From: a phage
Length of the DNA stretch: 64,000 bases
Assembly: GCA_012690745.1 (NCBI GenBank)
Contig: GCA_012690745.1_4086.1
Strand: one strand, 5' to 3'
The notes under the pieces were generated by a model. The model saw only the letters and a program-made list of their open reading frames with translations. It had not been told where the DNA came from and searched no databases. The position numbers and the translations under genes are program-made. Numbering within the stretch: position 1 is the stretch's first letter; the number at the start of each line of letters is the position of its first letter. Shown one piece after another: positions 10,030 to 22,448 of the stretch.

Positions 10030-11454
10030 ATGTCAGATAACAAATCTACTTCCAGATTCAATGAAGTATCTCCGGCACTCCAGAAAGAATGTCAAGAACG
10101 TCTGGTTCTGGCTCGTACATCTTTGATGTTAACTGCACCATTCTTTGGTGTACTCGCTTCACGTTTACGTCCAGTTCCTAATAATACATGGTGTCGTACT
10201 CTAGCAGTGGATGGTAAACATCTATTCTACAACGTAGAATTTGTAATGGGCATTCAAGACCCATCTAAAAAGAAAGAATATGAAGAAGCTATTCGTGAAA
10301 AGCACCCTGAAGTTACAGACGAACAATTAAAAGAAATGACTGAAGGTTTGACTGATGAAAACCTTGTTGCTGTAATTTGTCATGAAATTCTACACTGTGC
10401 TTACGATCACTTCCTTCGTCGTGGTATGCGTGATCCACAACGTTATAACCGTGCAGCGGATTATGCCATTAACCAAATCATCGTTCGTGAGAAAATTGGG
10501 AAAATCCAAAGTTCATGGTTGTATGATAAAAAATATGAAGGCATGACCGCAGAAGAGATTTACATTCTTCTTGAAGAAGAAGAACAAAAAGAAGATGGTG
10601 AAGGTGAAGGTCAACCACAAAGTGGTGGCGGTGAAGGTGAAGGTAAAAATCGCGGTACTTTTGGCGATATTAAAGATGGTAAGGGTAAACCAAAAGGTAC
10701 TACCATTGACCAGCATGACGTTCCACAAGAAGGTCAAGAAGGTGGTTCAAGTGAACAGCAAAAACGTGATTATATGGATGATTTCAAAACAGCAATGATG
10801 AATGCTGCACGTGCAGGTGGTACACCAGCAGAAATCGCTCGTATGATTAACAACTTTAAAGAACCAAAGATTGACTGGCGTTCAAAACTTCAACGTACAC
10901 TTCGTAGTTGGTTGAAGTCTGATGCAACATATCAAAATCCGAATCGTCGTTCTTGGGGTGCAGGTTTTGGTTCTAATGGTTCATTCTATGGTAATCCAAT
11001 TTACCCAGGGATGAAACCAGATGATGACATTGATATTGCGATTGCACTAGATGCTTCTGGATCTATTTCTGAAGATATGCTTCGTGATTTCATTAGTGAA
11101 GTTCTAGGTATCACTAAACAATTCAAACAGTTTAAGATTCGTATCATGACTTTTGATACTGAAGTTTATACTGTAAAGGATTACAAAACTGGCGAAGAAC
11201 GTAAGATTCTGGAATATCCAGTAAAAGGTGGTGGTGGTACTGACTTTGAAGCAGTATGGGTTCATATGAAGAACGACAACTACAAGCCTAAACAGCTTGT
11301 AATGTTTACAGATGGTGAACCGTGGCAGTCGTGGGGTGATCCAAACTACTGTAAAACACTGTTCGTGATTCACAGTAACCCAAATAAAGTTGCACCATTT
11401 GGTGAGACTGTACACTACGAATATGAAGCTGATAAAAAGCGTCAACGTAGTTAA
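10030..11454 (+). CDS. VWA-domain protein with N-terminal HExxH putative metallopeptidase domain (DUF2201-like, CobT/ViaA-like partner of the AAA+ ATPase)
   Basis: 474 aa. HEILH zinc-binding motif in the N-terminal domain; E/G-rich disordered linker; C-terminal MIDAS-like DASGS motif (IAIALDASGSIS) typical of von Willebrand A domains. Confidence 0.7.
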   Translation: MSDNKSTSRFNEVSPALQKECQERLVLARTSLMLTAPFFGVLASRLRPVPNNTWCRTLAVDGKHLFYNVEFVMGIQDPSKKKEYEEAIREKHPEVTDEQLKEMTEGLTDENLVAVICHEILHCAYDHFLRRGMRDPQRYNRAADYAINQIIVREKIGKIQSSWLYDKKYEGMTAEEIYILLEEEEQKEDGEGEGQPQSGGGEGEGKNRGTFGDIKDGKGKPKGTTIDQHDVPQEGQEGGSSEQQKRDYMDDFKTAMMNAARAGGTPAEIARMINNFKEPKIDWRSKLQRTLRSWLKSDATYQNPNRRSWGAGFGSNGSFYGNPIYPGMKPDDDIDIAIALDASGSISEDMLRDFISEVLGITKQFKQFKIRIMTFDTEVYTVKDYKTGEERKILEYPVKGGGGTDFEAVWVHMKNDNYKPKQLVMFTDGEPWQSWGDPNYCKTLFVIHSNPNKVAPFGETVHYEYEADKKRQRS

Positions 11455-11466
11455 GTACTAAATAAT

Positions 11467-11497
11467 GAGAACGGAATTTTCCGTTCTCTTCTTTTAT
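11467..11497 (+). terminator. intrinsic terminator
   Basis: GAGAACGG-aatttt-CCGTTCTC followed by TTCTTTTAT. Confidence 0.65.
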
Positions 11498-11501
11498 AAG
11501 T

Positions 11502-11529
11502 GGGACAACTTATAAAAATATGATATAAT
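11502..11529 (+). promoter_or_regulatory. sigma70-like early promoter (GGGACA - 16 nt - TATAAT)
   Basis: gggacaACTTATAAAAATATGAtataat; same spacing and ATGATATAAT -10 context as P2. Confidence 0.5.
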
Positions 11530-11563
11530 AGTTAATGTACCAATATACATGGAGAGTATTAAA

Positions 11564-11809
11564 ATGGAACAAGAAAATAATCAAATTCAACTAACCCTTC
11601 TAGACCTAATCAATGCTGCAAAAATTATGGAAGCTGCTGTTGCACGAAACACCTTTAAAGTTGAAGAACTTGTTGAGGTTGCTCCAGTTGTATCTAAATT
11701 TGTTTCTTTTGCAAATGTAGCTCTTGAAGATATTAAAGCACAAGAAGATGCAGCTAAAGAAGAAGCTGAATCACAAGATAGTGAAACTCAAGAAGATAAA
11801 GGAGAATAA
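11564..11809 (+). CDS. small acidic hypothetical protein
   Basis: ORF track starts at 11549, but ATG 11564 is preceded by GGAGAG. Product is E/D-rich (EDAAKEEAESQDSETQEDKGE). Confidence 0.45.
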   Translation: MEQENNQIQLTLLDLINAAKIMEAAVARNTFKVEELVEVAPVVSKFVSFANVALEDIKAQEDAAKEEAESQDSETQEDKGE

Positions 11810-11811
11810 TT

Positions 11812-12468
11812 ATGGCAGCTATTCGTCATGTTGGTGTAATGCGTAATACAGGTTCTCGTGTTTTTGTTGTTTGGCGTTCACTACCAGATGATCCTGAACA
11901 CTGCCTTATTGTTTATCGTGATTCACTACCAGAAGCATATGTTCACGCAGTAACTGATATTGTTATGGGTCATGGTCAATCTAATATTGATTTGTGGGAA
12001 GTAATGCATAAAATTGGTTATCTCGATGGACGCAAAATGCTAGATGTTCTACACAATATGCAGCATCTCCGTCGCGTTCGTACTTGTGACATTGATATGC
12101 ACACTGGTGGTAATAATAAAATTTCTCTTGATGTTCTAAACAAAGCATTAGATGAAAATCAAGCAAAAGTACAAGAAGATGGTAAAGTAAAAGACTTTAA
12201 CCCATTCAATCCACAAGAAGCGGACACTAAAGTAGAAGAAGCTACTATTGTAGAACAACTTCTCACTGATGCACAAAAATATGAAAAACTGGCTAAAGAA
12301 CATTATGAACGTGCATATAATTTAGAGCCAAGTTTGCGTCCACAAACACAAGTTGTTGAACAACCGAAAGATAGTAAAACAATTTATCTAGAAATTCCAG
12401 AAGGTATTTCACAGACTAAAGCTATTGAGAAAGTAAAACAACTATTTGCAGAACGTAAAGCAAAATAA
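11812..12468 (+). CDS. hypothetical protein
   Basis: 218-aa ORF; RBS GGAGAA; starts 3 nt after the previous stop. Confidence 0.5.
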   Translation: MAAIRHVGVMRNTGSRVFVVWRSLPDDPEHCLIVYRDSLPEAYVHAVTDIVMGHGQSNIDLWEVMHKIGYLDGRKMLDVLHNMQHLRRVRTCDIDMHTGGNNKISLDVLNKALDENQAKVQEDGKVKDFNPFNPQEADTKVEEATIVEQLLTDAQKYEKLAKEHYERAYNLEPSLRPQTQVVEQPKDSKTIYLEIPEGISQTKAIEKVKQLFAERKAK

Positions 12469-12471
12469 AAT

Positions 12472-13065
12472 ATGAAAAAGAATGAATTAGATGAAGCAAT
12501 AAAAGGTTTATCTAATGTATGTTTTAGTGGCGGGGCAGCAGGTGCTGACCGCCTTTTTTCTATCTATGCAAAAAATAATGGATTTGAAGTTATTAATTTT
12601 TCATTCAAAGGTCATGAGCATAGTGTAGATGAAAGTACTATATTAGAAATACCATCCAATATTCTATCTGATATTTCTATATTAAATCAACTAAACATTG
12701 CATGTTACTCGTTACAGCGAAAAGTACCGAAGCCTGGTTCTTATGTTTACAACTTACTTGCAAGGAATAGTTATCAGATACTTAATACAGAAAGAATATA
12801 TTGTATTGCAAATATCACATCACCAACTAAGGTAAGTGGTGGTACTGCATGGGCAGTACAGATGTATATGGATTCAGTTGAAAATCCTGAAATTTATTGT
12901 TATGATATGAATTCACGTTCAGTATTTTATTTTGATACAGTACTGAAAGAGTTCACACAAACATTCGTCGTTCCAGCACCACATGGTAACTGGACTGGTA
13001 TTGGTTCACGCAATGCCACCGAAAAACATATGGAACATTTTATTACATTTTTCAAGGAAGAATAA
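12472..13065 (+). CDS. Rossmann-like protein with glycine-rich FSGGAAGAD loop (SLOG/DprA/LOG-like; putative nucleotide-processing enzyme)
   Basis: 197-aa ORF; stop overlaps the thymidylate synthase start (ATGA at 13062-13065), implying co-expression. Fold assignment is inferred from the G-rich loop only. Confidence 0.4.
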   Translation: MKKNELDEAIKGLSNVCFSGGAAGADRLFSIYAKNNGFEVINFSFKGHEHSVDESTILEIPSNILSDISILNQLNIACYSLQRKVPKPGSYVYNLLARNSYQILNTERIYCIANITSPTKVSGGTAWAVQMYMDSVENPEIYCYDMNSRSVFYFDTVLKEFTQTFVVPAPHGNWTGIGSRNATEKHMEHFITFFKEE

Positions 13066-13994
13066 TGAAACAACTACAAGAACTATATCAAAAAATTCTA
13101 GATGAAGGCGTAGAAAGCGTTGACCGTACTGGTGTTGGGACAATCAAACTTATCGGTCAACAAATGCGTTTCGACCTTAACGATGGTTTCCCAGCAGTGA
13201 CGACAAAACGTCTAGCTTGGAAAGCAATGACTTCAGAATTACTATGGTTTATTGAAGGTTCCCATGATGAGCGTCGCCTTTGTGAAATTTTGCATGGAAC
13301 TCGTGATACCGAAAAGAAAACAATTTGGACAGATAATTACCTAAATCAAGGCGTTGCTCTTGGTTATACTGGTGGTGAATTGGGTCCAGTGTATGGTAAG
13401 CAATGGCGTGAATGGGAAGATTATAAATTTAGTTCCAGTACTGAAGAAATTCAAGAATTAAAAGATAAAGGATACAAAGTTATCGATTATACTGGTTCAC
13501 ATGGTGTTGTTATGAAACGTACAACTGACCAATTACAAGAACTAATCAAAGGTATAAAGTCCGATCCATATGGTCGTCGCCACATTCTAAGTGCATGGAA
13601 CGTTGGTGAGCTTGATGATATGACGTTGCCACCTTGTCATAGCTTTGTGCAATTTTGTGTAGTACAAGGGAAACTAAGCTGCATTCTACATCAACGCTCC
13701 GCTGATCTATTTTTAGGAGTTCCATTTAATATCAGTAGTTACTCACTACTAACTCATATGATTGCACAAATTACTGGTTTAGATGTTGGTGAATTTATTT
13801 GGAATGGTGGTGATTGTCACATTTATAAAAACCACGTTGAACAAGTAAAAGAACAACTACAGCGAAAACCTCGTGAATTACCTGAATTGTGGCTTGATCC
13901 TACAATTACTAATATTGAAGATTTCACAATGGATTCTTTCAAATTAGTGAATTACAACCCAATGCCAACAATTAAAGCACCGATGGCTGTATAA
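13065..13994 (+). CDS. thyA: thymidylate synthase (ThyA-type, T4 td-like), intronless
   Basis: 309 aa. Canonical motifs: FPAVTTKRLAWK, RRHILSAWN, active-site LPPCHSFVQF, QRSADLFLGVPFNISSYSLL, GGDCHIYKNH. Confidence 0.95.
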   Translation: MKQLQELYQKILDEGVESVDRTGVGTIKLIGQQMRFDLNDGFPAVTTKRLAWKAMTSELLWFIEGSHDERRLCEILHGTRDTEKKTIWTDNYLNQGVALGYTGGELGPVYGKQWREWEDYKFSSSTEEIQELKDKGYKVIDYTGSHGVVMKRTTDQLQELIKGIKSDPYGRRHILSAWNVGELDDMTLPPCHSFVQFCVVQGKLSCILHQRSADLFLGVPFNISSYSLLTHMIAQITGLDVGEFIWNGGDCHIYKNHVEQVKEQLQRKPRELPELWLDPTITNIEDFTMDSFKLVNYNPMPTIKAPMAV

Positions 13995-14001
13995 ACGAAA
14001 A

Positions 14002-14028
14002 GGGAGAACTAATGTTCTCCCTTTTTTT
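14002..14028. terminator. bidirectional intrinsic terminator between convergent genes
   Basis: GGGAGAAC-taat-GTTCTCCC followed by TTTTTTT on plus; A/T run on the other side as well. Confidence 0.75.
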
Positions 14029-14029
14029 A

Positions 14030-15994
14030 TTATCTAATTGTTACCAATGTTCTTCCGTCGAAACGTACATCAGGAGTTGAAGGTATACTAAACACTACGT
14101 TAGTGCCGTTAAACGTAACGCTATCGACCTCAACACGAGTATAGACACCAGGACTAACCTGTTCCTGTATCTCTGCTGTGACGATGTTTGAGGCTGTTAC
14201 AGTAAGGGTGTAGTAGTTACCACTTAATACCCAAGATGAAATGGTAAAAGCATCGGTTCTCACTGAACCTGAACCAATCGGAACCCATTGACCTTGAACT
14301 TTTTGCATTGAAGTACGCTCGGTATTTGAGTATGCAATCATACCATCAACGCCAACAGAGTTATCAATAGTTGCTAGTACTGGTAATTGGATACCATATC
14401 TATTAAAACGTGTTCTTATAGTTCCATTATCATAGATACTTACATCAGCATAATTACCCATTGATAGTTTTAAATCAGAACTAACTAATTGGATTGTACT
14501 TTGATTAGTAGTACTTTCTAATGTAATTATACCATTAGCTAATAGATTTATATTTTTAAATTTATTAGTTGTTCCATTGAAATTAGTGTTTGCTGTAAAC
14601 GTACTAACTCCATTAACTGTAATTGTATCTGATGCAGCATCGCCTAATATGGTATTACCTTGAATGTTCAAATTACCACTAGCAGTGATATTACTAGCTG
14701 ATGTATCACCAGTCAATGTGCTTGTACCATCAACCACAATATTACCATGAAACGCACTTTCACCATTTTTAAATTCAACTTGTACTTTATTCATTGAACT
14801 AAATGAAATAATATTACTACTAGCACTTAGTCCAACATTAGTATTGGTTGCATTATCAAATCTTAGTACTGGGGTTGATGCTGGGGTTGAAGTTGTTTGG
14901 TATAATGTTAATGTTGAATTATTAATTCTAATACGTTCAGTTCCCGCAGTACTGAAACCAATTGCATCATCTGCTGGATGAAACATACCAGTATTAGCGT
15001 CTGACCATTTTGCAGGATCATTACCTGGGTTATTGGTTGGATCAAATGGATTGTTATTAAATGTCAATGCTGGTGCTGCTGCACTACCATAGACCACACC
15101 AAAACGCCCTGAGCCGCTTGTTCCATCATTATACATGGAATCACCAGTTCTACGTAAACACTCAATCACAACGTTATCTATGGATGTTTGAACGGTCCCT
15201 GCGTTTGTCCTAAATTGACGATGATTTGCAATCATTACAGTATTGTCATATAATACTGAAGCAGCGGAAATGCTTGTTCTTGACTGGCGTAGACGTATGT
15301 TTTTATCTTCAGTTATAATAATCCAATCACCATCTGATAGTGCGGTTTGGTTCATTGGAACACCTGAAGCAAATGGTTTGGTTAAGTCAGCATCTGTTGC
15401 TAAATTTTTAAGACCATCATGACCAGTACTAGGAATAGATGCAGGAATAATTCTAGCGAAAGCGTATGTTACTAGTTTAGCACCAGATATATTTGGATTA
15501 GAGTCAACATAATATAAAATTTCAATCCAATTACCTTGTCCAGTTGGATTTGTAGGTGTAAATGTAACAGGACTTGTTTGTGGATTATTTGCTTCATAAT
15601 GGGCTTGTGCGGCATCCATAATACCACGAACAACATAATAATCACCATTTAGTGATGCTGCTGGTGCTGGTAGTGGTGTTTGTGCTAAAGGTGGATCAAT
15701 ATCATCTGGGATAGGATTGTATGTACCAACAAACTGTAAACCACTAGTTACTGAATCTGGTAATTGGGAAGTAAGAAGTTTACCATTTGCATCTAAGTTT
15801 GCAAAGCGGCGATATGCCATAGTACCATCTTCAAAATCCAGAACACCTTCAAATGATTTCCATTCCTTATTGTATCTAATCATCCCTGATCTTATTACAT
15901 CAGCGGTTTCTTTTGATGGTGCTTTCGGTAACTCTAAAAAAGATTTACTATCAATAATTACACCACCATCACCTCTAATTCGATTTATACTCAT
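14030..15994 (-). CDS. tail fibre / receptor-binding protein
   Basis: 654 aa, Thr/Ser/Asn/Gly-rich beta-rich composition, N-terminal GMIRYN..W..FEG-type fibre motif, C-terminal variable region. Confidence 0.6.
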   Translation of the reverse strand: MSINRIRGDGGVIIDSKSFLELPKAPSKETADVIRSGMIRYNKEWKSFEGVLDFEDGTMAYRRFANLDANGKLLTSQLPDSVTSGLQFVGTYNPIPDDIDPPLAQTPLPAPAASLNGDYYVVRGIMDAAQAHYEANNPQTSPVTFTPTNPTGQGNWIEILYYVDSNPNISGAKLVTYAFARIIPASIPSTGHDGLKNLATDADLTKPFASGVPMNQTALSDGDWIIITEDKNIRLRQSRTSISAASVLYDNTVMIANHRQFRTNAGTVQTSIDNVVIECLRRTGDSMYNDGTSGSGRFGVVYGSAAAPALTFNNNPFDPTNNPGNDPAKWSDANTGMFHPADDAIGFSTAGTERIRINNSTLTLYQTTSTPASTPVLRFDNATNTNVGLSASSNIISFSSMNKVQVEFKNGESAFHGNIVVDGTSTLTGDTSASNITASGNLNIQGNTILGDAASDTITVNGVSTFTANTNFNGTTNKFKNINLLANGIITLESTTNQSTIQLVSSDLKLSMGNYADVSIYDNGTIRTRFNRYGIQLPVLATIDNSVGVDGMIAYSNTERTSMQKVQGQWVPIGSGSVRTDAFTISSWVLSGNYYTLTVTASNIVTAEIQEQVSPGVYTRVEVDSVTFNGTNVVFSIPSTPDVRFDGRTLVTIR

Positions 15995-16922: not shown

Positions 16923-19900
16923 TTAAGCAGTACGTTGTGCAATAAACATATCTGTTACTGGACTCACACCGTCATAAATGACTTGGTAGATAGTTACAGA
17001 GTTTGCAGTTTTGTTCAGTGTGCCATCAACAACCGCATAAGTACCATCAGTAGTAAAGTTTCTATTACCTGTTGCATCTTGTTTCACATAAATGTATACT
17101 GAAGATGCTTTACCACCACCGATTAGACCAGTGATTGGTGCTAGAGTGGTATCTTGATCTAGAGTGATAAAGTATACGTTGCTAGTACCGTCTGGGGTCC
17201 AAGTACCAGTTGGTGCGATAACAGAAGAAGTTACTTGATTAGGAATAACATCATATTTTTTAGTAGTTACTGTTGTAGTAGTTAGGTCAGCATTAGTAGT
17301 TGTTAATTGACCAGTTACAGTTACATCTTTATCAAATACTGCATTTTCTTTGAAAGAAGATGTTGCATTGACAGTTAATGTATCAGCAGCAGCGTCACCT
17401 AAAACAACACTACCATTTGCAGTCATTAAACCAGTAACAGTTAAAGTACCACCGATTGTTGCTGCTCCAGTAACAGATGCACTAGCAAGTGTTGCTGCAC
17501 CAGAAGTAGTAATGGTAGTTACTGAAGTTGCTGCTAGGGTTGCAGTACCTGTTGCAGAAATATCACCACCAACAGTTAGGTTACCAGAAGTAATTCCAAC
17601 GGTTCCAGTAATGTTAGCACCACTTGACATTGTTACTGCACCACCAAATGAACCAGTAGTAGTTACTTCAAGGGTGTTCCCTTTTAGTAGACCAGTTGCA
17701 GTAATACTTGTACCTGCGGTAATACTAGTACCAGCAGCAACACTGTTGGTTGCAGTTAATGATTTAACAGCCACGTCAGAGTTTGCTTGGTTTAGTGTTG
17801 CGTTAAGTAGACCAGTTACTGTAAAGTTACCGTTGTTAACTACGTTACCATTGATTGTTAAGTTGTTGTTTTGTGAACCAACATCACCAATAGTTGCTGA
17901 TTTGGAAATCAACTCTGCACCAGAAGTAATATTACCCGCTGCACTAATAGTGTCCGCCGCAACAACTGCATAAGGTTCAATTGTTTGACCACTAACGTCA
18001 ATATCAGCGTTGATACCACCATCTACACGCAAGGAGCCAGCAATGTAAGTATTAGGGAAAATCTGAACTGTCTCTGGTTGATCGCCAATTTTAGTACCGA
18101 TAATAACATCAGCACCAGTTTTAACTGCACCAGAGGTTGTTAGAGAACCTAAAGTTGTAGCACCAGTTACACCTAATGTACCACCAATTGTTGCGTTATT
18201 AGTAACTGCTAACGCAGCACCTTCACCATTAAGAGCGATTGATGGAGCAGATACTGCACCAGTTACGCCTAATGTGCCACCAATTGTTGCGTTGCCATCT
18301 GAATGTAGAGTTGTAGCTACAGAAAGACTGTTAGCAACTACATCAGTACTAGCTAAATCCAATGCACCTGGGGTTAATGTACCAGTAATGTTAACATTAT
18401 TACCAAAGGTCGCTGCACCAGTCACATCTAGTGTAGTACTAAATGTACCAGATGTTGCAGAGATTGCACCTGAATCTAGTGATCCAACAGTTGCTTTACC
18501 AGTTACACCTAAAGTTCCACCAACAGTTCCATTTGTGGTTACATCCAATGTACCAGTACTTAGTTCTTGTGCGGTTACCTTACCGGATGCAGTAACAGTT
18601 GAAGTGGAAACACCACCAGTTAGAGTACTAGCACCAGTAACACTTAATGTGGTTGCCGCAGTTACGCTATTCACACTAAGATCAGCACCGGATAAGTCCA
18701 AACCACCTTCAGGAACAAATACACCCTTAACAGTTAGTTTTTGTACTGTACTATCACCTGTTACATCCAATGTAGAAGCAGTTAAACCACCATTCATACT
18801 TGCTGCACCAGTAACACCTAGTGTAGTGGTTACAGTAGCACTATTAAGTGTTGAGCTACCAGAAATATTAGCACTAGAAGCAGTAATAGTTCCAGAATCA
18901 ACTTGTATACCACCAGCAACAACCTGAATTCCACCAGCATTAACTGTTAGTTTACCAGCAGTATTCAATGTATTTGAAACTGTTGTTGCACCAGTTAAAG
19001 TTGTAGTGCCAGTTACACCTAAGTTACCAGAAATAGATGGACTACCTGTAATGTTACCAGTAGTTAGTATCAAATCAGTACCTACGGTAGTGGAGCCAGT
19101 ACTTTCTAGTGTTACACCGACGATGTTTGCAGAACTTAGGTTAATAGTACCATCAACAGTTAAGTTACCTTGAACGGTTGCATCACCTAGAGAAGTTAAT
19201 GTCTTCACAGACACATCAGTTGTGCTAAGATCAATAACACCCGCAGTTAGTGTTCCAGATACTGCTAAATTACCAGTAATCGCGGTATTTTTAGTAATGG
19301 ATACATTTTCTGCCGCTGAAGTAATAGAACCAACAGTAAGTACACCACCAACAGTTGCGTTATTAGTTACATTTAGAGCAGTTCCAACACCAGATAGTGT
19401 TGCTGACCCACCAGTAATTGCACCTGAGATTGAAGCTGTTGCTGCTGAAACATCACCAGAAACTACTGCATTTGTTGCATTTAGAGCAGACACTGTAACT
19501 TCAGTACTTTGAACTTTAGGTAGAACGTTGATACCTTCTGCACTACTAACTGTAATAATACCAGTACTTGTTAGAGATTTAACAGATACATCAGCACCAC
19601 TTAAATCAACTGTACCAGAAACAACAAGATCTCCACCAATATTTGCTCCAGCGGTAGTAGTAATGGATTTTGCACTTACATCAGTTGTGCTCAAATCAAT
19701 TGCACCTGGTGTTACTGTACCAGAAACTGTTAGGTCACCAGTAATAGATGTATTATTGGAAATAGATACACCATCAACGTTACTAATTGTTGGGGTTTCT
19801 ACAGAAACTGCTTTAACTTTACCTGAAGAAGTTACGTCAGCTACGGTAGATGCACCAGTAACATTCAAATTAGTAATATTTGCAGTTGTTGAACCAAGGG

Positions 19901-22448
19901 TTGCAATAGTTGCATCAGTACTTTGAAGTTTAGGTAGAACACTACTAATTGTGGATTCATTACTAACAATTGCACCAGTACTAGTTAAAGATTTGACAGT
20001 AACATCAGCCGTAGTAAGATCTACTGTACCATTAACAGTTAGGTTACCACCAATAGTTGCACCAGCAGTAGTAGTAATGGATTTAGCATTAACATCAGTT
20101 GTTGCTAGATCGATAGAGCCTGGAATAACTGCACCAGTAACAGTTAGGTCACCAGTTACATTTGTATTATTGGAAATAGTGACACCACTTGCATTTGAAA
20201 TGGTTGGGGTAACCAACGATGCAGTTGTAGTTTCACCAGTTACAGTTAAAGTTGACCCAACTAGAACAGATGAGCTTGAGTAAATTGTACCCAAATTAGC
20301 AGATCCGGTAACAGTTATATCATCAGCATTAACAGTAGTTGCCGTTATGGTAGTACTATTAAGTACTGGAAGTACGTTAGCATTAACAAGATCATTACTT
20401 TTAACAATACCAGAAGTAGTTAATGATTTAACATTAAGGTCGGCTGCTGATAAATCAAAAGAGCCTTGAACTACTAAATCACCACCAATAGTTGCACCAG
20501 CAGTAGTAGTGATTGATTTAGCATTAATATCGGTAGTGCTCAAGTCTAGAGAACCAACAGTTAAGCTACCAGTAATATCAACATTTTCTGTAAAGTTAGT
20601 ATTACCACTAATAGTTGGTGCAGTCAGAGTTGTTGCACTAATATTAGTACCGTTAATTGTTTGCCCACTTACAGTTCCACTCGCAGTGATAGTAGGGGCC
20701 GTTACTTCAGTAGATGCACTAATTGTTGGTGCAGATACAGAAGTTGTACCAGTAATAGAACCAGAACTTACTGAACCAGCGGATAATGCACCAGAAAGAG
20801 TTGCAGTTGTACCAGCAATATCACCAGTAACAGTTAGTTTAGCACCCACGGTAGTGTTACCAGTACTTTCAAGTGTTGCACCTTTAATATTTGCTGCCGC
20901 GACAACAGAATTAGGTGTTAGATCCTGCCCACTAACATCAACAGTTAGTCCAGTTACTGTTCCAGTAAATTCAACATCATTAAGAATTGCTTTACCACCA
21001 ACTTGTAGGAATGGTGTACCTGGAGCTTGTGTTTCGTTACCAGTAATAGTTAGGTAATCTAGTTTGTTTAGACCGTTACCAGTAATACCATAAGTGGAAA
21101 GAGAAGCGTTACCGAAAGTTGCTGTTTTAAGAACGTTCAATGTAGAAGGAGAAACGACTTCTGATTGAACTTCGTTAGGTAGAATAACTGTTGGGCGTTG
21201 ACCTGGTGCAGTATATCCAAAACCTAGTTTCACTGCCGCATCTTGACTATTTTGACCTAAGCTGATAGCTTTAAAGGATGCAGTACTGTTATAACCAGTA
21301 ATATTAGAACCAAGAGTAACACCACCAACTAATGAAGTTACACCAGTAACGTTCAAAGATACTGCATTAATATCGTCTAGTTGGAACGTTCCACCAAGAA
21401 GACCAGAAACATTAATGTTATTAAAATTAGCAGTACCAGTACTTTCGATATTTGGAATAGTTGCAGTTCCGGTTACTTCAAAGTCAGCAACTTTAGTTTT
21501 TCCTTTTTGAACTTCTAATAGTGGTGTGTCTGGTGATTGTGTATTGTTACCAGAAACTGTTAGATAATCTAATTTGTTTAGACCATTACCAGTAATACCA
21601 TAAGAAGATAATGACGCATTACCAAAAGAAGCAGAGGTCAATACTGTCAAGTTTGCAGGTGACATTAGCTCGGACTGAATTTCGTTTTGTAGAATAACAG
21701 TTGGGCGTTTACCAGGAGCAGTGTAAGGGAAGCTTAATCTGAAGGTTTGTGATTCAGAGTTAGAACCAATACGAATGTCTTTAAAAGTAGCAGTACTGTT
21801 AATACCAGTTACGTTAGCACCGAAAGTTACTGCACCTTGTTGGTTAGATGCACCAGTAACGTTCAATGTTACTGCATTTAAGTCAGATAGATTAAACTCA
21901 CCACCAAGTGTACCACTAATTGTCACATCGTTAAATGTAGCAGTACCAGTACTACTAATATCTGTTGTACTTACATTAGTAATTTCTGCGGTATTAGCAG
22001 TAATTTTATCAAATGCAGCAGTAGTCCCAACATCAGCAGTAATATTACCTTTAAATGCTGTTGTTTCAGCAACTTCTAAGTTTTTAACTTTAGTTGCTTG
22101 TAGAGTGGTTGTACCAGCAGTTTGTGTAAAATCAGAACCAACTGATACAGTACCGTTAAAGGTAGCGTTTGAATTAATTGTTGCTGTATCAGACCCGACA
22201 ACTGCACTACCGATTGTAGTATTACCCTCAACACCAAGACCACCAGAAAGTGTTGCTTTGCCACCTACATCTAAAGTAGATGTAATGTTGGCAGTTGATG
22301 ATTCAATGGCAGTAAAAGTTGCATTTGCAAAAGTTACAGTACCATTTACAGTTAGGTTATTGTTGAAAACAGCATTTCCTTTGACTAAAAGATCCTTACC
22401 AACCGTACCAGCACCAGTAATATCTAAGTCAGTTTTTATTGAGTACAT
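16923..22448 (-). CDS. giant repeat-containing tail fibre / adhesin-like protein (1841 aa)
   Basis: Continuous ORF, Thr/Gly/Ser/Val-rich. Two ~170-aa tandem units (aa ~152-495) and about three and a half ~140-aa tandem units (aa ~620-1110). Low stop-codon content generates spurious antisense ORFs. Confidence 0.75.
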   Translation of the reverse strand: MYSIKTDLDITGAGTVGKDLLVKGNAVFNNNLTVNGTVTFANATFTAIESSTANITSTLDVGGKATLSGGLGVEGNTTIGSAVVGSDTATINSNATFNGTVSVGSDFTQTAGTTTLQATKVKNLEVAETTAFKGNITADVGTTAAFDKITANTAEITNVSTTDISSTGTATFNDVTISGTLGGEFNLSDLNAVTLNVTGASNQQGAVTFGANVTGINSTATFKDIRIGSNSESQTFRLSFPYTAPGKRPTVILQNEIQSELMSPANLTVLTSASFGNASLSSYGITGNGLNKLDYLTVSGNNTQSPDTPLLEVQKGKTKVADFEVTGTATIPNIESTGTANFNNINVSGLLGGTFQLDDINAVSLNVTGVTSLVGGVTLGSNITGYNSTASFKAISLGQNSQDAAVKLGFGYTAPGQRPTVILPNEVQSEVVSPSTLNVLKTATFGNASLSTYGITGNGLNKLDYLTITGNETQAPGTPFLQVGGKAILNDVEFTGTVTGLTVDVSGQDLTPNSVVAAANIKGATLESTGNTTVGAKLTVTGDIAGTTATLSGALSAGSVSSGSITGTTSVSAPTISASTEVTAPTITASGTVSGQTINGTNISATTLTAPTISGNTNFTENVDITGSLTVGSLDLSTTDINAKSITTTAGATIGGDLVVQGSFDLSAADLNVKSLTTSGIVKSNDLVNANVLPVLNSTTITATTVNADDITVTGSANLGTIYSSSSVLVGSTLTVTGETTTASLVTPTISNASGVTISNNTNVTGDLTVTGAVIPGSIDLATTDVNAKSITTTAGATIGGNLTVNGTVDLTTADVTVKSLTSTGAIVSNESTISSVLPKLQSTDATIATLGSTTANITNLNVTGASTVADVTSSGKVKAVSVETPTISNVDGVSISNNTSITGDLTVSGTVTPGAIDLSTTDVSAKSITTTAGANIGGDLVVSGTVDLSGADVSVKSLTSTGIITVSSAEGINVLPKVQSTEVTVSALNATNAVVSGDVSAATASISGAITGGSATLSGVGTALNVTNNATVGGVLTVGSITSAAENVSITKNTAITGNLAVSGTLTAGVIDLSTTDVSVKTLTSLGDATVQGNLTVDGTINLSSANIVGVTLESTGSTTVGTDLILTTGNITGSPSISGNLGVTGTTTLTGATTVSNTLNTAGKLTVNAGGIQVVAGGIQVDSGTITASSANISGSSTLNSATVTTTLGVTGAASMNGGLTASTLDVTGDSTVQKLTVKGVFVPEGGLDLSGADLSVNSVTAATTLSVTGASTLTGGVSTSTVTASGKVTAQELSTGTLDVTTNGTVGGTLGVTGKATVGSLDSGAISATSGTFSTTLDVTGAATFGNNVNITGTLTPGALDLASTDVVANSLSVATTLHSDGNATIGGTLGVTGAVSAPSIALNGEGAALAVTNNATIGGTLGVTGATTLGSLTTSGAVKTGADVIIGTKIGDQPETVQIFPNTYIAGSLRVDGGINADIDVSGQTIEPYAVVAADTISAAGNITSGAELISKSATIGDVGSQNNNLTINGNVVNNGNFTVTGLLNATLNQANSDVAVKSLTATNSVAAGTSITAGTSITATGLLKGNTLEVTTTGSFGGAVTMSSGANITGTVGITSGNLTVGGDISATGTATLAATSVTTITTSGAATLASASVTGAATIGGTLTVTGLMTANGSVVLGDAAADTLTVNATSSFKENAVFDKDVTVTGQLTTTNADLTTTTVTTKKYDVIPNQVTSSVIAPTGTWTPDGTSNVYFITLDQDTTLAPITGLIGGGKASSVYIYVKQDATGNRNFTTDGTYAVVDGTLNKTANSVTIYQVIYDGVSPVTDMFIAQRTA
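19121..20591 (-). repeat. intragenic tandem repeats (about 3.5 units of ~420 bp) in the giant fibre gene
   Basis: Repeated protein module G(S/A)(L/I)DL.TTD(I/V)(N/S)AKSITTTAGA(T/N)IGG.L.V.G..DL..AD..VKSLT(T/S)(S/T)G; also visible as near-identical antisense ORFs 19528-19926 and 19951-20283. Confidence 0.8.
20966..21995 (-). repeat. intragenic tandem duplication (2 units of ~510 bp) in the giant fibre gene
   Basis: Protein units ...GGEFNLSDLNAVTLNVTGAS...FPYTAPGKRPTVILQNEIQSE...SSYGITGNGLNKLDYLTVSGN... and ...GGTFQLDDINAVSLNVTGVT...GYTAPGQRPTVILPNEVQSE...STYGITGNGLNKLDYLTITGN... Confidence 0.8.

Follow-up and report, generated by a model that had tools for sequence, protein, structure and literature searches.

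Our analysis supports the view that a 197-amino acid (aa) protein encoded by a 64,000-nucleotide stretch of phage DNA (contig GCA_012690745.1_4086.1; "the window" below means this whole stretch) is a circularly permuted SLOG domain that retains the signatures of the DNA-binding protein DprA. The 2.6-kb region containing its gene is 98-99% identical to Asteriusvirus (121Q/PBECO4-like) Escherichia jumbo phages (121Q, PBECO4, SP27, phAPEC6, Sharanji and others) and corresponds to genes 565-568 of 121Q (gp565-gp568), the SLOG protein being gp567. The window belongs to this genus, with about 98.7% identity. We propose, with a probability of about 0.4, that gp567 acts in phage DNA metabolism by binding, in the manner of DprA and without catalysis, a nucleotide of single-stranded DNA (ssDNA). 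The protein would be transcribed in a four-gene unit (11549-13994) that ends with the gene of an apparently ordinary thymidylate synthase. Four motifs (SGGAxGAD, LxxRN..Q, GGTAWA and GIGSR) would form an intact DprA-type pocket and, like the Rossmann domain of DprA, gp567 would clamp one nucleotide by its base and phosphate, most probably within ssDNA, during replication, recombination or ssDNA handling. Since this pocket seems intact and the hydrolase motif of the LOG family is missing, gp567 most likely works without catalysis.

A permuted SLOG fold with DprA signatures

With 54 homologues as input, AlphaFold2 modelled gp567 with very high confidence (pLDDT 97.1, pTM 0.92). The model is an alpha/beta sandwich of three layers, and its nearest neighbours among known structures belong to the SLOG superfamily. 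A first-pass annotation, made from the sequence alone, had noticed an open reading frame (ORF) with the motif FSGGAAGAD beside a thymidylate synthase gene and had suggested a SLOG/DprA/LOG-type fold: the motif is indeed found on the plus strand in this ORF (F18-S-G-G-A-A-G-A-D26), and both the model and its structural neighbours bear out the fold. In the Foldseek search, 3imk, a "putative molybdenum carrier protein" from Syntrophus aciditrophicus that we take to be the structural exemplar of the Pfam family PF12694 (cpYpsA, "circularly permutated YpsA"), ranked first, with no other match at E<=0.01; independently of this search, 3imk scored far above the non-permuted SLOG structures. Gp567 differs from 3imk by being 40 residues longer, with an extra beta-meander (aa 141-164); since 3imk has no known function, it offers no mechanism. 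The fold search of BFVD retrieved only uncharacterised viral relatives, and searches of PDB sequences gave nothing usable, whether the query was gp567 itself, the profile of its family or a relative that leans towards cpYpsA.

The order of the structural elements distinguishes gp567 from DprA, LOG and YpsA. Its first strand carries SGGAxGAD and its last strand and last helix carry GIGSR, whereas in those three the strand with GSR/GS comes first, ahead of the SGxAxGxD strand. The C-terminal location of GIGSR would thus result from a circular permutation that moved strand 1 and helix 1 to the C-terminus. When the C-terminal strand and helix of ten family members were moved in silico to the N-terminus and Pfam was rescanned, alignments to PF02481 (DprA) crossed the artificial junction in five of the ten: they began at the GSR strand (profile positions 45-50) and extended as far as the glycine loop. 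E-values went down to 1.7e-5 in these constructs versus 6e-3 for any native sequence, with a maximum of 24.6 bits, under the gathering threshold of PF02481 (29.6). Furthermore, three relatives (P0215, P0223 and P0225) score 17.4-19.5 bits on PF12694, under its gathering threshold of 26.2; gp567 itself has no match to this family at E<=1. The un-permutation test, the top rank of 3imk and these weak cpYpsA matches together support the reading of gp567 as a permuted SLOG domain.

Profile libraries barely register the family. In Pfam, gp567 only has a sub-threshold match to YAcAr (PF10686; 20.2 bits versus a gathering threshold of 28.2, aa 6-44), and such sub-threshold matches occur in 17 of the 54 family members. 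No Pfam or NCBIfam threshold is passed by the family, which is covered by PHROG 768 alone ("DprA-like DNA recombination-mediator protein"; E=1.3e-26 for gp567). The RefSeq names of the homologues repeat this "DprA-like" label or, for some of them, read "DUF2493 domain-containing protein". Neither gp567 nor other family members match PF03641 (LOG), and gp567 has neither a profile match nor a close structural match to PF05014 (nucleoside 2-deoxyribosyltransferase/DrHyd). NCBIfam and PADLOC contain no model for the family, and PADLOC gave no match to it.

The conservation of motifs was derived from an alignment of 54 family members (Table 1). Little or no variation is seen in S19-G-G-A-x-G-A-D26 and G123-G-T125, which are also kept in distant members. 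According to Wang et al. (PMC3950713), the ssDNA-binding signatures of DprA are G-S/T/A-R and F/L/Y-x-x-R-N/D. Both are present in gp567, as G178-S179-R180 and L95-x-x-R98-N99; G178, R180 and R98 are invariant and the other residues are conserved in at least 90% of members. The same study uses PGGxGTxxE to set the LOG ("lysine decarboxylase") family apart. This motif is absent from gp567: the equivalent loop is V-S-G-G-T-A-W-A-V-Q and, according to the motif alignment, the invariant A128 occupies the position of the catalytic glutamate. The invariant residues of the family are Gly, Ser, Thr, Ala, Arg, Gln, one Ile and D26 of the DprA-like GxD, and the 54-member alignment contains no family-specific invariant acidic residue that would replace the glutamate of LOG. 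In the complex of HpDprA with dT35, the pocket holds one thymidine nucleotide (PMC3950713), and the invariant residues of gp567 appear, from the aligned motifs, to be exactly those lining this pocket.

Gp567 can be compared with three groups of characterized SLOG proteins. With the Rossmann domain of DprA/Smf (PF02481, which includes the defence antitoxin ShosA), it shares both ssDNA-binding signatures; however, DprA/Smf proteins have the canonical strand order plus SAM and winged-helix domains, whereas gp567 is permuted and made of a single domain. From the LOG/PpnN phosphoribohydrolases (PF03641), it differs by the alanine of GGTAWA in place of their catalytic-Glu motif and, through the permutation, by its strand order. 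The third group comprises YAcAr/DUF2493 (PF10686), the YpsA family and the SLOG sensor of ThsA: the YAcAr match of gp567 covers the glycine loop only, and this comparison gave no evidence that ADP-ribose (ADPR) or cyclic ADP-ribose (cADPR) are ligands of gp567.

Family size, fusions and gene neighbourhoods

More than 14 Asteriusvirus genomes encode a protein 100% identical to gp567, and full-length homologues with 49-62% identity occur in other genera of jumbo phages (86 phage records). A word-indexed search retrieved 106 homologues, none of them with a precomputed Pfam domain; an exhaustive profile search retrieved 2,824 clusters at 50% identity, including 765 at E<=1e-30. The family is mostly phage-encoded and most members are stand-alone proteins of 175-210 aa. 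Cellular homologues are carried by chromosomes of Flavobacterium, Myroides and Paenimyroides (L092-L102).

Some members are larger. About one-tenth of the best matches are prolonged at their C-terminus by a conserved segment of ~100 aa (consensus ...DIIYVP...GGWATV...KPD..ENN), found at aa ~215-300 of P0093, at the equivalent place in 14 other proteins (alignment A3) and in L091 (3983-4897). This extension matches no Pfam family and has no separate PHROG match; in the AlphaFold2 model of P0093 (pLDDT 88), it is predicted to form a small beta-barrel and a helix. Most N-terminal extensions likewise lack a Pfam family or a functional PHROG annotation. The sole informative fusion in the scan for partner domains joins one member to a histidine phosphatase domain (His_Phos_1), and one structural match of gp567 in BFVD is fused to a DNA 3'-5' helicase. 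Moreover, the permuted SLOG domain is found inside giant proteins: at aa ~981-1144 of a 3,820-aa protein annotated as the virion RNA polymerase in the N4-like Klebsiella phage Pylas (L089, NC_049444.1, 3001-3492), near the C-terminus of a 4,329-aa protein of the crAss-like phage cr113_1 (L090, NC_055896.1, 3001-3477) and in several metagenomic proteins of 1,700-4,050 aa. All four motifs are intact in the proteins of Pylas and cr113_1. The reading frame of the latter (gp38, L090 1-3786) contains 14 in-frame TAG among 1,261 codons and ends with TAA, which points to TAG stop-codon recoding in this phage.

The first-pass annotation had seen in the vicinity of thyA, the thymidylate synthase gene, a hint of a shared pathway, and linkage of the two genes in relatives had been set in advance as one test of this idea. 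A tblastn search of 88 fetched loci with ThyA spoke against it outside one clade. The thyA gene lies just downstream in each of the 17 loci with a SLOG protein that shares 49% identity or more with gp567, all from RaK2-like jumbo phages, versus none of the 71 loci with a SLOG protein at most 40% identical, where thyA was searched within ~6 kb. In addition, another gene separates the SLOG gene from thyA in most members of the RaK2-like clade. The adjacency of the two genes is thus operon synteny of RaK2-like jumbo phages and not a dedicated two-enzyme pathway.

Clustering of the neighbouring ORFs across 45 non-redundant groups of loci gave another picture for the wider family. The commonest neighbour is a kinase of deoxynucleoside monophosphates (dNMP) related to gp1 of phage T4 (DNMK, PF21448), present in 21 of the 45 groups; it is located within two genes in 18 groups, the other 27 having none at this distance. 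DNMK mostly lies directly upstream of the SLOG gene, with stop/start overlaps of -1, -4, -10, -22 or -34 nucleotides. Inversion or rearrangement of the flanking genes (tail sheath, PTH2-like, gp13-like) leaves the pair together, and so does divergence of the SLOG proteins, which are only 34-65% identical to one another. This cassette is found beside a tail-sheath gene in many environmental myovirus contigs (L023-L083, e.g. L027, L033, L038, L043 and L071), as well as in Atu_ph07 and in Sinorhizobium phage Phosso (L091 3345-4897). In RaK2-like phages, the closest relatives of DNMK are ~15-16 kb away from the SLOG gene.

Several other neighbourhoods are also related to DNA or nucleotides. In Caulobacter phage Cr30, the SLOG gene directly follows the genes of the recombination nuclease gp47/gp46 and precedes a peptide deformylase gene. 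In Atu_ph07, it follows a gene for nicotinamide adenine dinucleotide (NAD) synthetase, two genes upstream, and the kinase gene. The metagenomic contig L009 encodes a deoxycytidine monophosphate (dCMP) deaminase nearby and NAD-salvage enzymes (NAMPT, NadM-Nudix) 1-3 kb away. In Flavobacteriaceae, the array is fixed: miaB on the opposite strand, the SLOG gene, the gene of an HTH-WYL-WCX regulator 6 nucleotides downstream and topA (e.g. L095 5986-10129). As a side observation, smf (dprA) of E. coli likewise adjoins the topoisomerase-like gene yrdD and def, which recalls the deformylase gene beside the Cr30 homologue.

The four-gene unit and its thymidylate synthase

The gene of gp567 is the third of four tightly packed genes separated by 2, 3 and -1 nucleotides (Table 1). 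The promoter candidate ahead of them should be read with care: promoter-like sites are no commoner in this region than in shuffled sequence. Another such site (TTGAAA-17-TATGAT with an extended -10 TG, 12878-12906, plus strand) falls within the SLOG gene and could drive separate transcription of thyA. The terminator that follows thyA abuts the stop codon of a convergent 654-aa structural gene (14030-15994, minus strand) and may therefore serve both transcription units. A repetitive tail-fibre ORF of 1,841 aa is located further downstream (16923-22448). No transfer RNA gene was found in the 64-kb window.

Table 1. Features of the gp567 locus; positions are counted from the first nucleotide of the window
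Feature	Position	Strand	Remarks
Palindromic terminator-like hairpin	11467..11488	both (scored)	9-bp stem, 5 GC pairs; closes the gp564-like upstream gene and marks the start of the four-gene unit
Sigma-70-like promoter candidate	11502..11529	+	GGGACA-16-TATAAT with TG; ahead of the four-gene unit; consensus match only
86-aa ORF, homologue of 121Q gp565	11549..11809	+	PHROG 13789, E=2.4e-37; no assigned function
218-aa ORF, homologue of 121Q gp566	11812..12468	+	PHROG 15894, E=1.5e-124; no assigned function
197-aa single-domain circularly permuted SLOG (DprA/cpYpsA-like) protein, 121Q gp567	12472..13065	+	
S19-G-G-A-A-G-A-D26, glycine-rich strand-to-helix loop (SLOG/DprA "SGxAxGxD")	12526..12549	+	S19, G20, A22, G24 and D26 invariant in 54 members
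L95-L-A-R98-N99-S-Y-Q102, helix motif, ssDNA-binding signature 2 of DprA	12754..12777	+	R98 and Q102 invariant
G123-G-T-A-W-A128, second glycine loop	12838..12855	+	at the place of PGGxGTxxE of LOG (motif alignment by eye)
G176-I-G-S-R180, strand-to-loop motif, signature 1 of DprA (G-S/T/A-R)	12997..13011	+	
AAGGAAG, Shine-Dalgarno-like site for thyA	13054..13060	+	inside the end of the SLOG gene; read from the sequence
TAATG stop/start junction	13063..13067	+	1-nucleotide overlap
thyA, 309-aa thymidylate synthase, 121Q gp568	13065..13994	+	intronless
Surface insertion of ThyA (33 aa, aa 119-151) relative to E. coli ThyA	13419..13517	+	
Codon of catalytic Cys191 of ThyA (PPCH motif)	13635..13637	+	
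Strong intrinsic terminator	13997..14026	+	13-bp stem then T run; between thyA and the convergent structural gene

Upstream of the unit, a 474-aa ORF (10030-11454, plus strand) corresponds to gp564 of 121Q. RefSeq and PHROG 1314 name it "HNH endonuclease". In Pfam, it matches a DUF2201_N putative metallopeptidase domain and a DUF2201/VWA domain (E=2e-35 and 7e-21) and, together with the ATPase encoded upstream, it resembles the ATPase-VWA pair of N4 gp24/gp25 type noted in the RaK2 record. The "HNH" name thus looks like an annotation error.

Genes for gp565 and gp566 are found ahead of the SLOG gene in the examined RaK2-like loci, except that gp565 went undetected in one of four representative loci. 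A homologue of gp566 lies upstream of the SLOG gene in all of these loci, either directly or with one gene of ~100 aa in between. In the window, the stop codon of gp566 is located 3 nucleotides before the ATG of the SLOG gene. No obvious Shine-Dalgarno sequence precedes this ATG, and translation of the SLOG gene may therefore depend on coupling to gp566.

The junction between the SLOG gene and thyA reads GAA-TAA-TG-AAA: the stop codon TAA (13063-13065) and the ATG of thyA (13065-13067) share a single nucleotide, and not the four of the ATGA overlap described in the first-pass annotation. The AAGGAAG site ends 4 nucleotides upstream of the ATG of thyA, with its GGA core 6 nucleotides away, a normal spacing. 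Since thyA has its own Shine-Dalgarno-like site, it can probably initiate independently. Moreover, relatives do not keep this overlap: the genes stand apart in RaK2 (TAA-AA-ATG), and Mimasvirus-type relatives (CBB, GAP32) have a gene of ~100 aa between them. The overlap would thus allow coupling without implying stoichiometric co-expression. The idea that translational coupling imposes a fixed ratio between both proteins, previously drawn from the overlap, was rejected because of the separate initiation site and of the junction that is not conserved even in RaK2.

As far as can be judged from its sequence, ThyA appears to be an ordinary synthase of deoxythymidine monophosphate (dTMP). It is full-length, covers positions 2-266 of the 266 of Pfam PF00303 (E=1e-101, 340 bits), passes the NCBIfam equivalog NF002497 (342.7 bits versus a cut-off of 327) and TIGR03284 (326.8 bits versus 108), and matches the structures of E. 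coli ThyA at E=1.9e-80. Its catalytic motifs, PPCH (Cys191) and R211-S-A-D, are intact. The uninterrupted ORF, the match to the whole PF00303 profile and the absence of any Rfam family at gathering thresholds in the window agree with the earlier description of thyA as intronless. Hence, a group I intron or another RNA element in the region was rejected, no Rfam match being found anywhere in the window. The td gene of phage T4, to which thyA can be compared, does carry a group I intron; its upstream partner is frd, which encodes dihydrofolate reductase, whereas that of thyA in the window is the SLOG gene.

The first-pass annotation had also mentioned an insertion of about 25 aa in ThyA. The insertion is real; its size is 33 residues (aa 119-151), which replace 4 residues of E. 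coli ThyA (net +29). Further small insertions similar to those of T4 td occur at aa 67-103, for a total of +45 aa relative to the E. coli enzyme. Residues 82-116 of T4 td are nearly collinear with aa 83-117 of ThyA, and the insert of 3v8h, a solved long-form bacterial thymidylate synthase of 327 aa, aligns with aa 119-151. Both types being known, the idea that the insertion is unusual was rejected.

Function of gp567 and its alternatives

Several DNA-centred contexts support the proposal that gp567 binds ssDNA: the virion RNA polymerase of Pylas and the giant crAss-like protein of 4,329 aa, the helicase fusion, the gp47/gp46 genes of Cr30 and the WYL regulator and topA genes of Flavobacteriaceae. 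SLOG proteins of DprA/Smf type from jumbo phages were earlier proposed to be additional ssDNA binders (PMC7824862). Furthermore, ShosA provides a precedent for a DprA-like ssDNA binder that is genetically paired with an enzyme of nucleotide metabolism (PMC11961720). Several points weigh against this proposal. The scan with PF02481 gave no match for gp567, native family members stay below its gathering threshold and the comparison of the family profile with E. coli Smf by hhalign has a probability of 0.1, with only the helix of the RN motif aligned. Gp567 lacks the SAM and C-terminal winged-helix domains of DprA, and no function is known for 3imk, the nearest among solved structures. With an isoelectric point of 5.7 (family median ~7, range 5.3-9.4), gp567 and its relatives show no general basic surface. 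We found in the literature no experiment, on binding or on activity, with any member of the family. In addition, the neighbours DNMK (18 of 45 groups) and thyA both handle dTMP, a context that agrees with a free nucleotide as ligand at least as well, and the fusion of one member to His_Phos_1 suggests small-molecule chemistry.

These last points lead to the main rival reading, which we consider rather unlikely, namely that gp567 is an accessory of deoxynucleotide metabolism, its pocket binding, channelling or hydrolysing a free dNMP as a carrier, a regulator or a sanitising N-glycosidase. The most economical ligand would be dTMP, made by the neighbouring ThyA in RaK2-like phages and, elsewhere, used as a substrate by the gp1-type kinase encoded beside the SLOG gene, and it is a single thymidine nucleotide that the homologous pocket of HpDprA holds (PMC3950713). 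The DNMK-SLOG pair, usually overlapping, survives both the rearrangement of its flanks and the divergence of the SLOG proteins; RaK2-like phages, whose DNMK relatives are distant, have thyA beside the SLOG gene instead; L009 carries genes for dCMP deaminase and NAD salvage nearby; and the His_Phos_1 fusion would fit such a role. However, nearly all loci where DNMK is adjacent share a tail-sheath neighbourhood and may represent one arrangement inherited by related myoviruses, 27 of the 45 groups have no DNMK within two genes and many members are near neither DNMK nor thyA. Hydrolysis is at odds with the missing LOG glutamate motif and the lack of an invariant acidic replacement, and the occurrence of the domain in virion-injected giant proteins and beside topA is hard to explain by dNMP metabolism. 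The accessory step in pyrimidine metabolism or nucleotide modification that the first-pass annotation had imagined is accordingly retained in part only: thyA looks ordinary and its linkage is local synteny, whereas a looser link to deoxynucleotide metabolism stays because a gp1-type dNMP kinase is the commonest neighbour in the wider family. The stronger form of that idea, in which gp567 and ThyA would together make a non-canonical pyrimidine for the phage DNA, seems very improbable. Its sole support is the adjacency to thyA in the RaK2-like clade together with the general involvement of SLOG/DrHyd folds in nucleotide processing. The linkage is absent outside this clade and interrupted in most of its members, the SLOG protein has no catalytic signature, and ThyA, with its equivalog score and canonical motifs, looks like a plain dTMP synthase, so that nothing points to DNA hypermodification. 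Moreover, the genome paper of the Asteriusvirus Sharanji lists methyltransferases as genome protection and no base hypermodification.

A role in counter-defence, a general proposal for YpsA-like SLOG domains of viruses, was predicted by Iyer et al. 2022 (PMC9503650) for most viral SLOG domains, which are enriched in jumbo phages: gp567 would sense, sequester or cleave immune signals derived from ADP-ribose (e.g. the cADPR isomers of Thoeris) early in infection. The presence of the domain in giant proteins delivered by virions and the NAD-related genes of L009 and Atu_ph07 are consistent with this prediction, which we nevertheless regard as improbable for this family. Anti-defence genes are typically patchy, whereas the SLOG gene occupies a fixed position, within replication/nucleotide operons, in every RaK2-like record found, and the homologues of Flavobacteriaceae lie in a housekeeping context (miaB, topA) kept across genera. 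Furthermore, the members examined show no fusion with a Macro, NADAR or Nudix domain, PADLOC gives no match and the motifs appear to be of DprA type rather than those of the cADPR pocket of ThsA. A more speculative proposal, to which we give still less credit, would turn gp567 into a coupler between the supply of deoxythymidylate and DNA synthesis. It would hold the ssDNA of the fork or dTMP and at the same time dock a partner enzyme, which would be ThyA in RaK2-like phages and the gp1-type dNMP kinase across the wider family. It would thereby act as a dedicated tether or hand-off factor of the complex that synthesises deoxynucleoside triphosphates, possibly through the insert of ThyA (aa 119-151). 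Virion-injected giant proteins, among them a virion RNA polymerase, would have recruited the same module to grip the single-stranded template.

Databases and the literature already contain the SLOG fold, the "DprA-like" label and the finding that jumbo phages encode SLOG proteins. Our analysis adds the permutation with retention of the DprA signatures, the size of a family that lies under all Pfam and NCBIfam thresholds, the contrast between a clade-restricted linkage to thyA and a widespread one to dNMP kinase, and the occurrence of the domain inside giant virion proteins. Members should be annotated as "circularly permuted SLOG (DprA/cpYpsA-like) domain protein" rather than as "recombination mediator". 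If gp567 is indeed a DprA-type binder of ssDNA or nucleotides, this would provide a function for a family of 2,824 clusters that is missed by Pfam and NCBIfam and labelled by analogy in RefSeq. It would also explain why this module recurs beside enzymes that handle dTMP and within giant virion proteins such as a virion RNA polymerase. Moreover, the repertoire of DprA-like recombination mediators and ssDNA binders would gain a circularly permuted branch.

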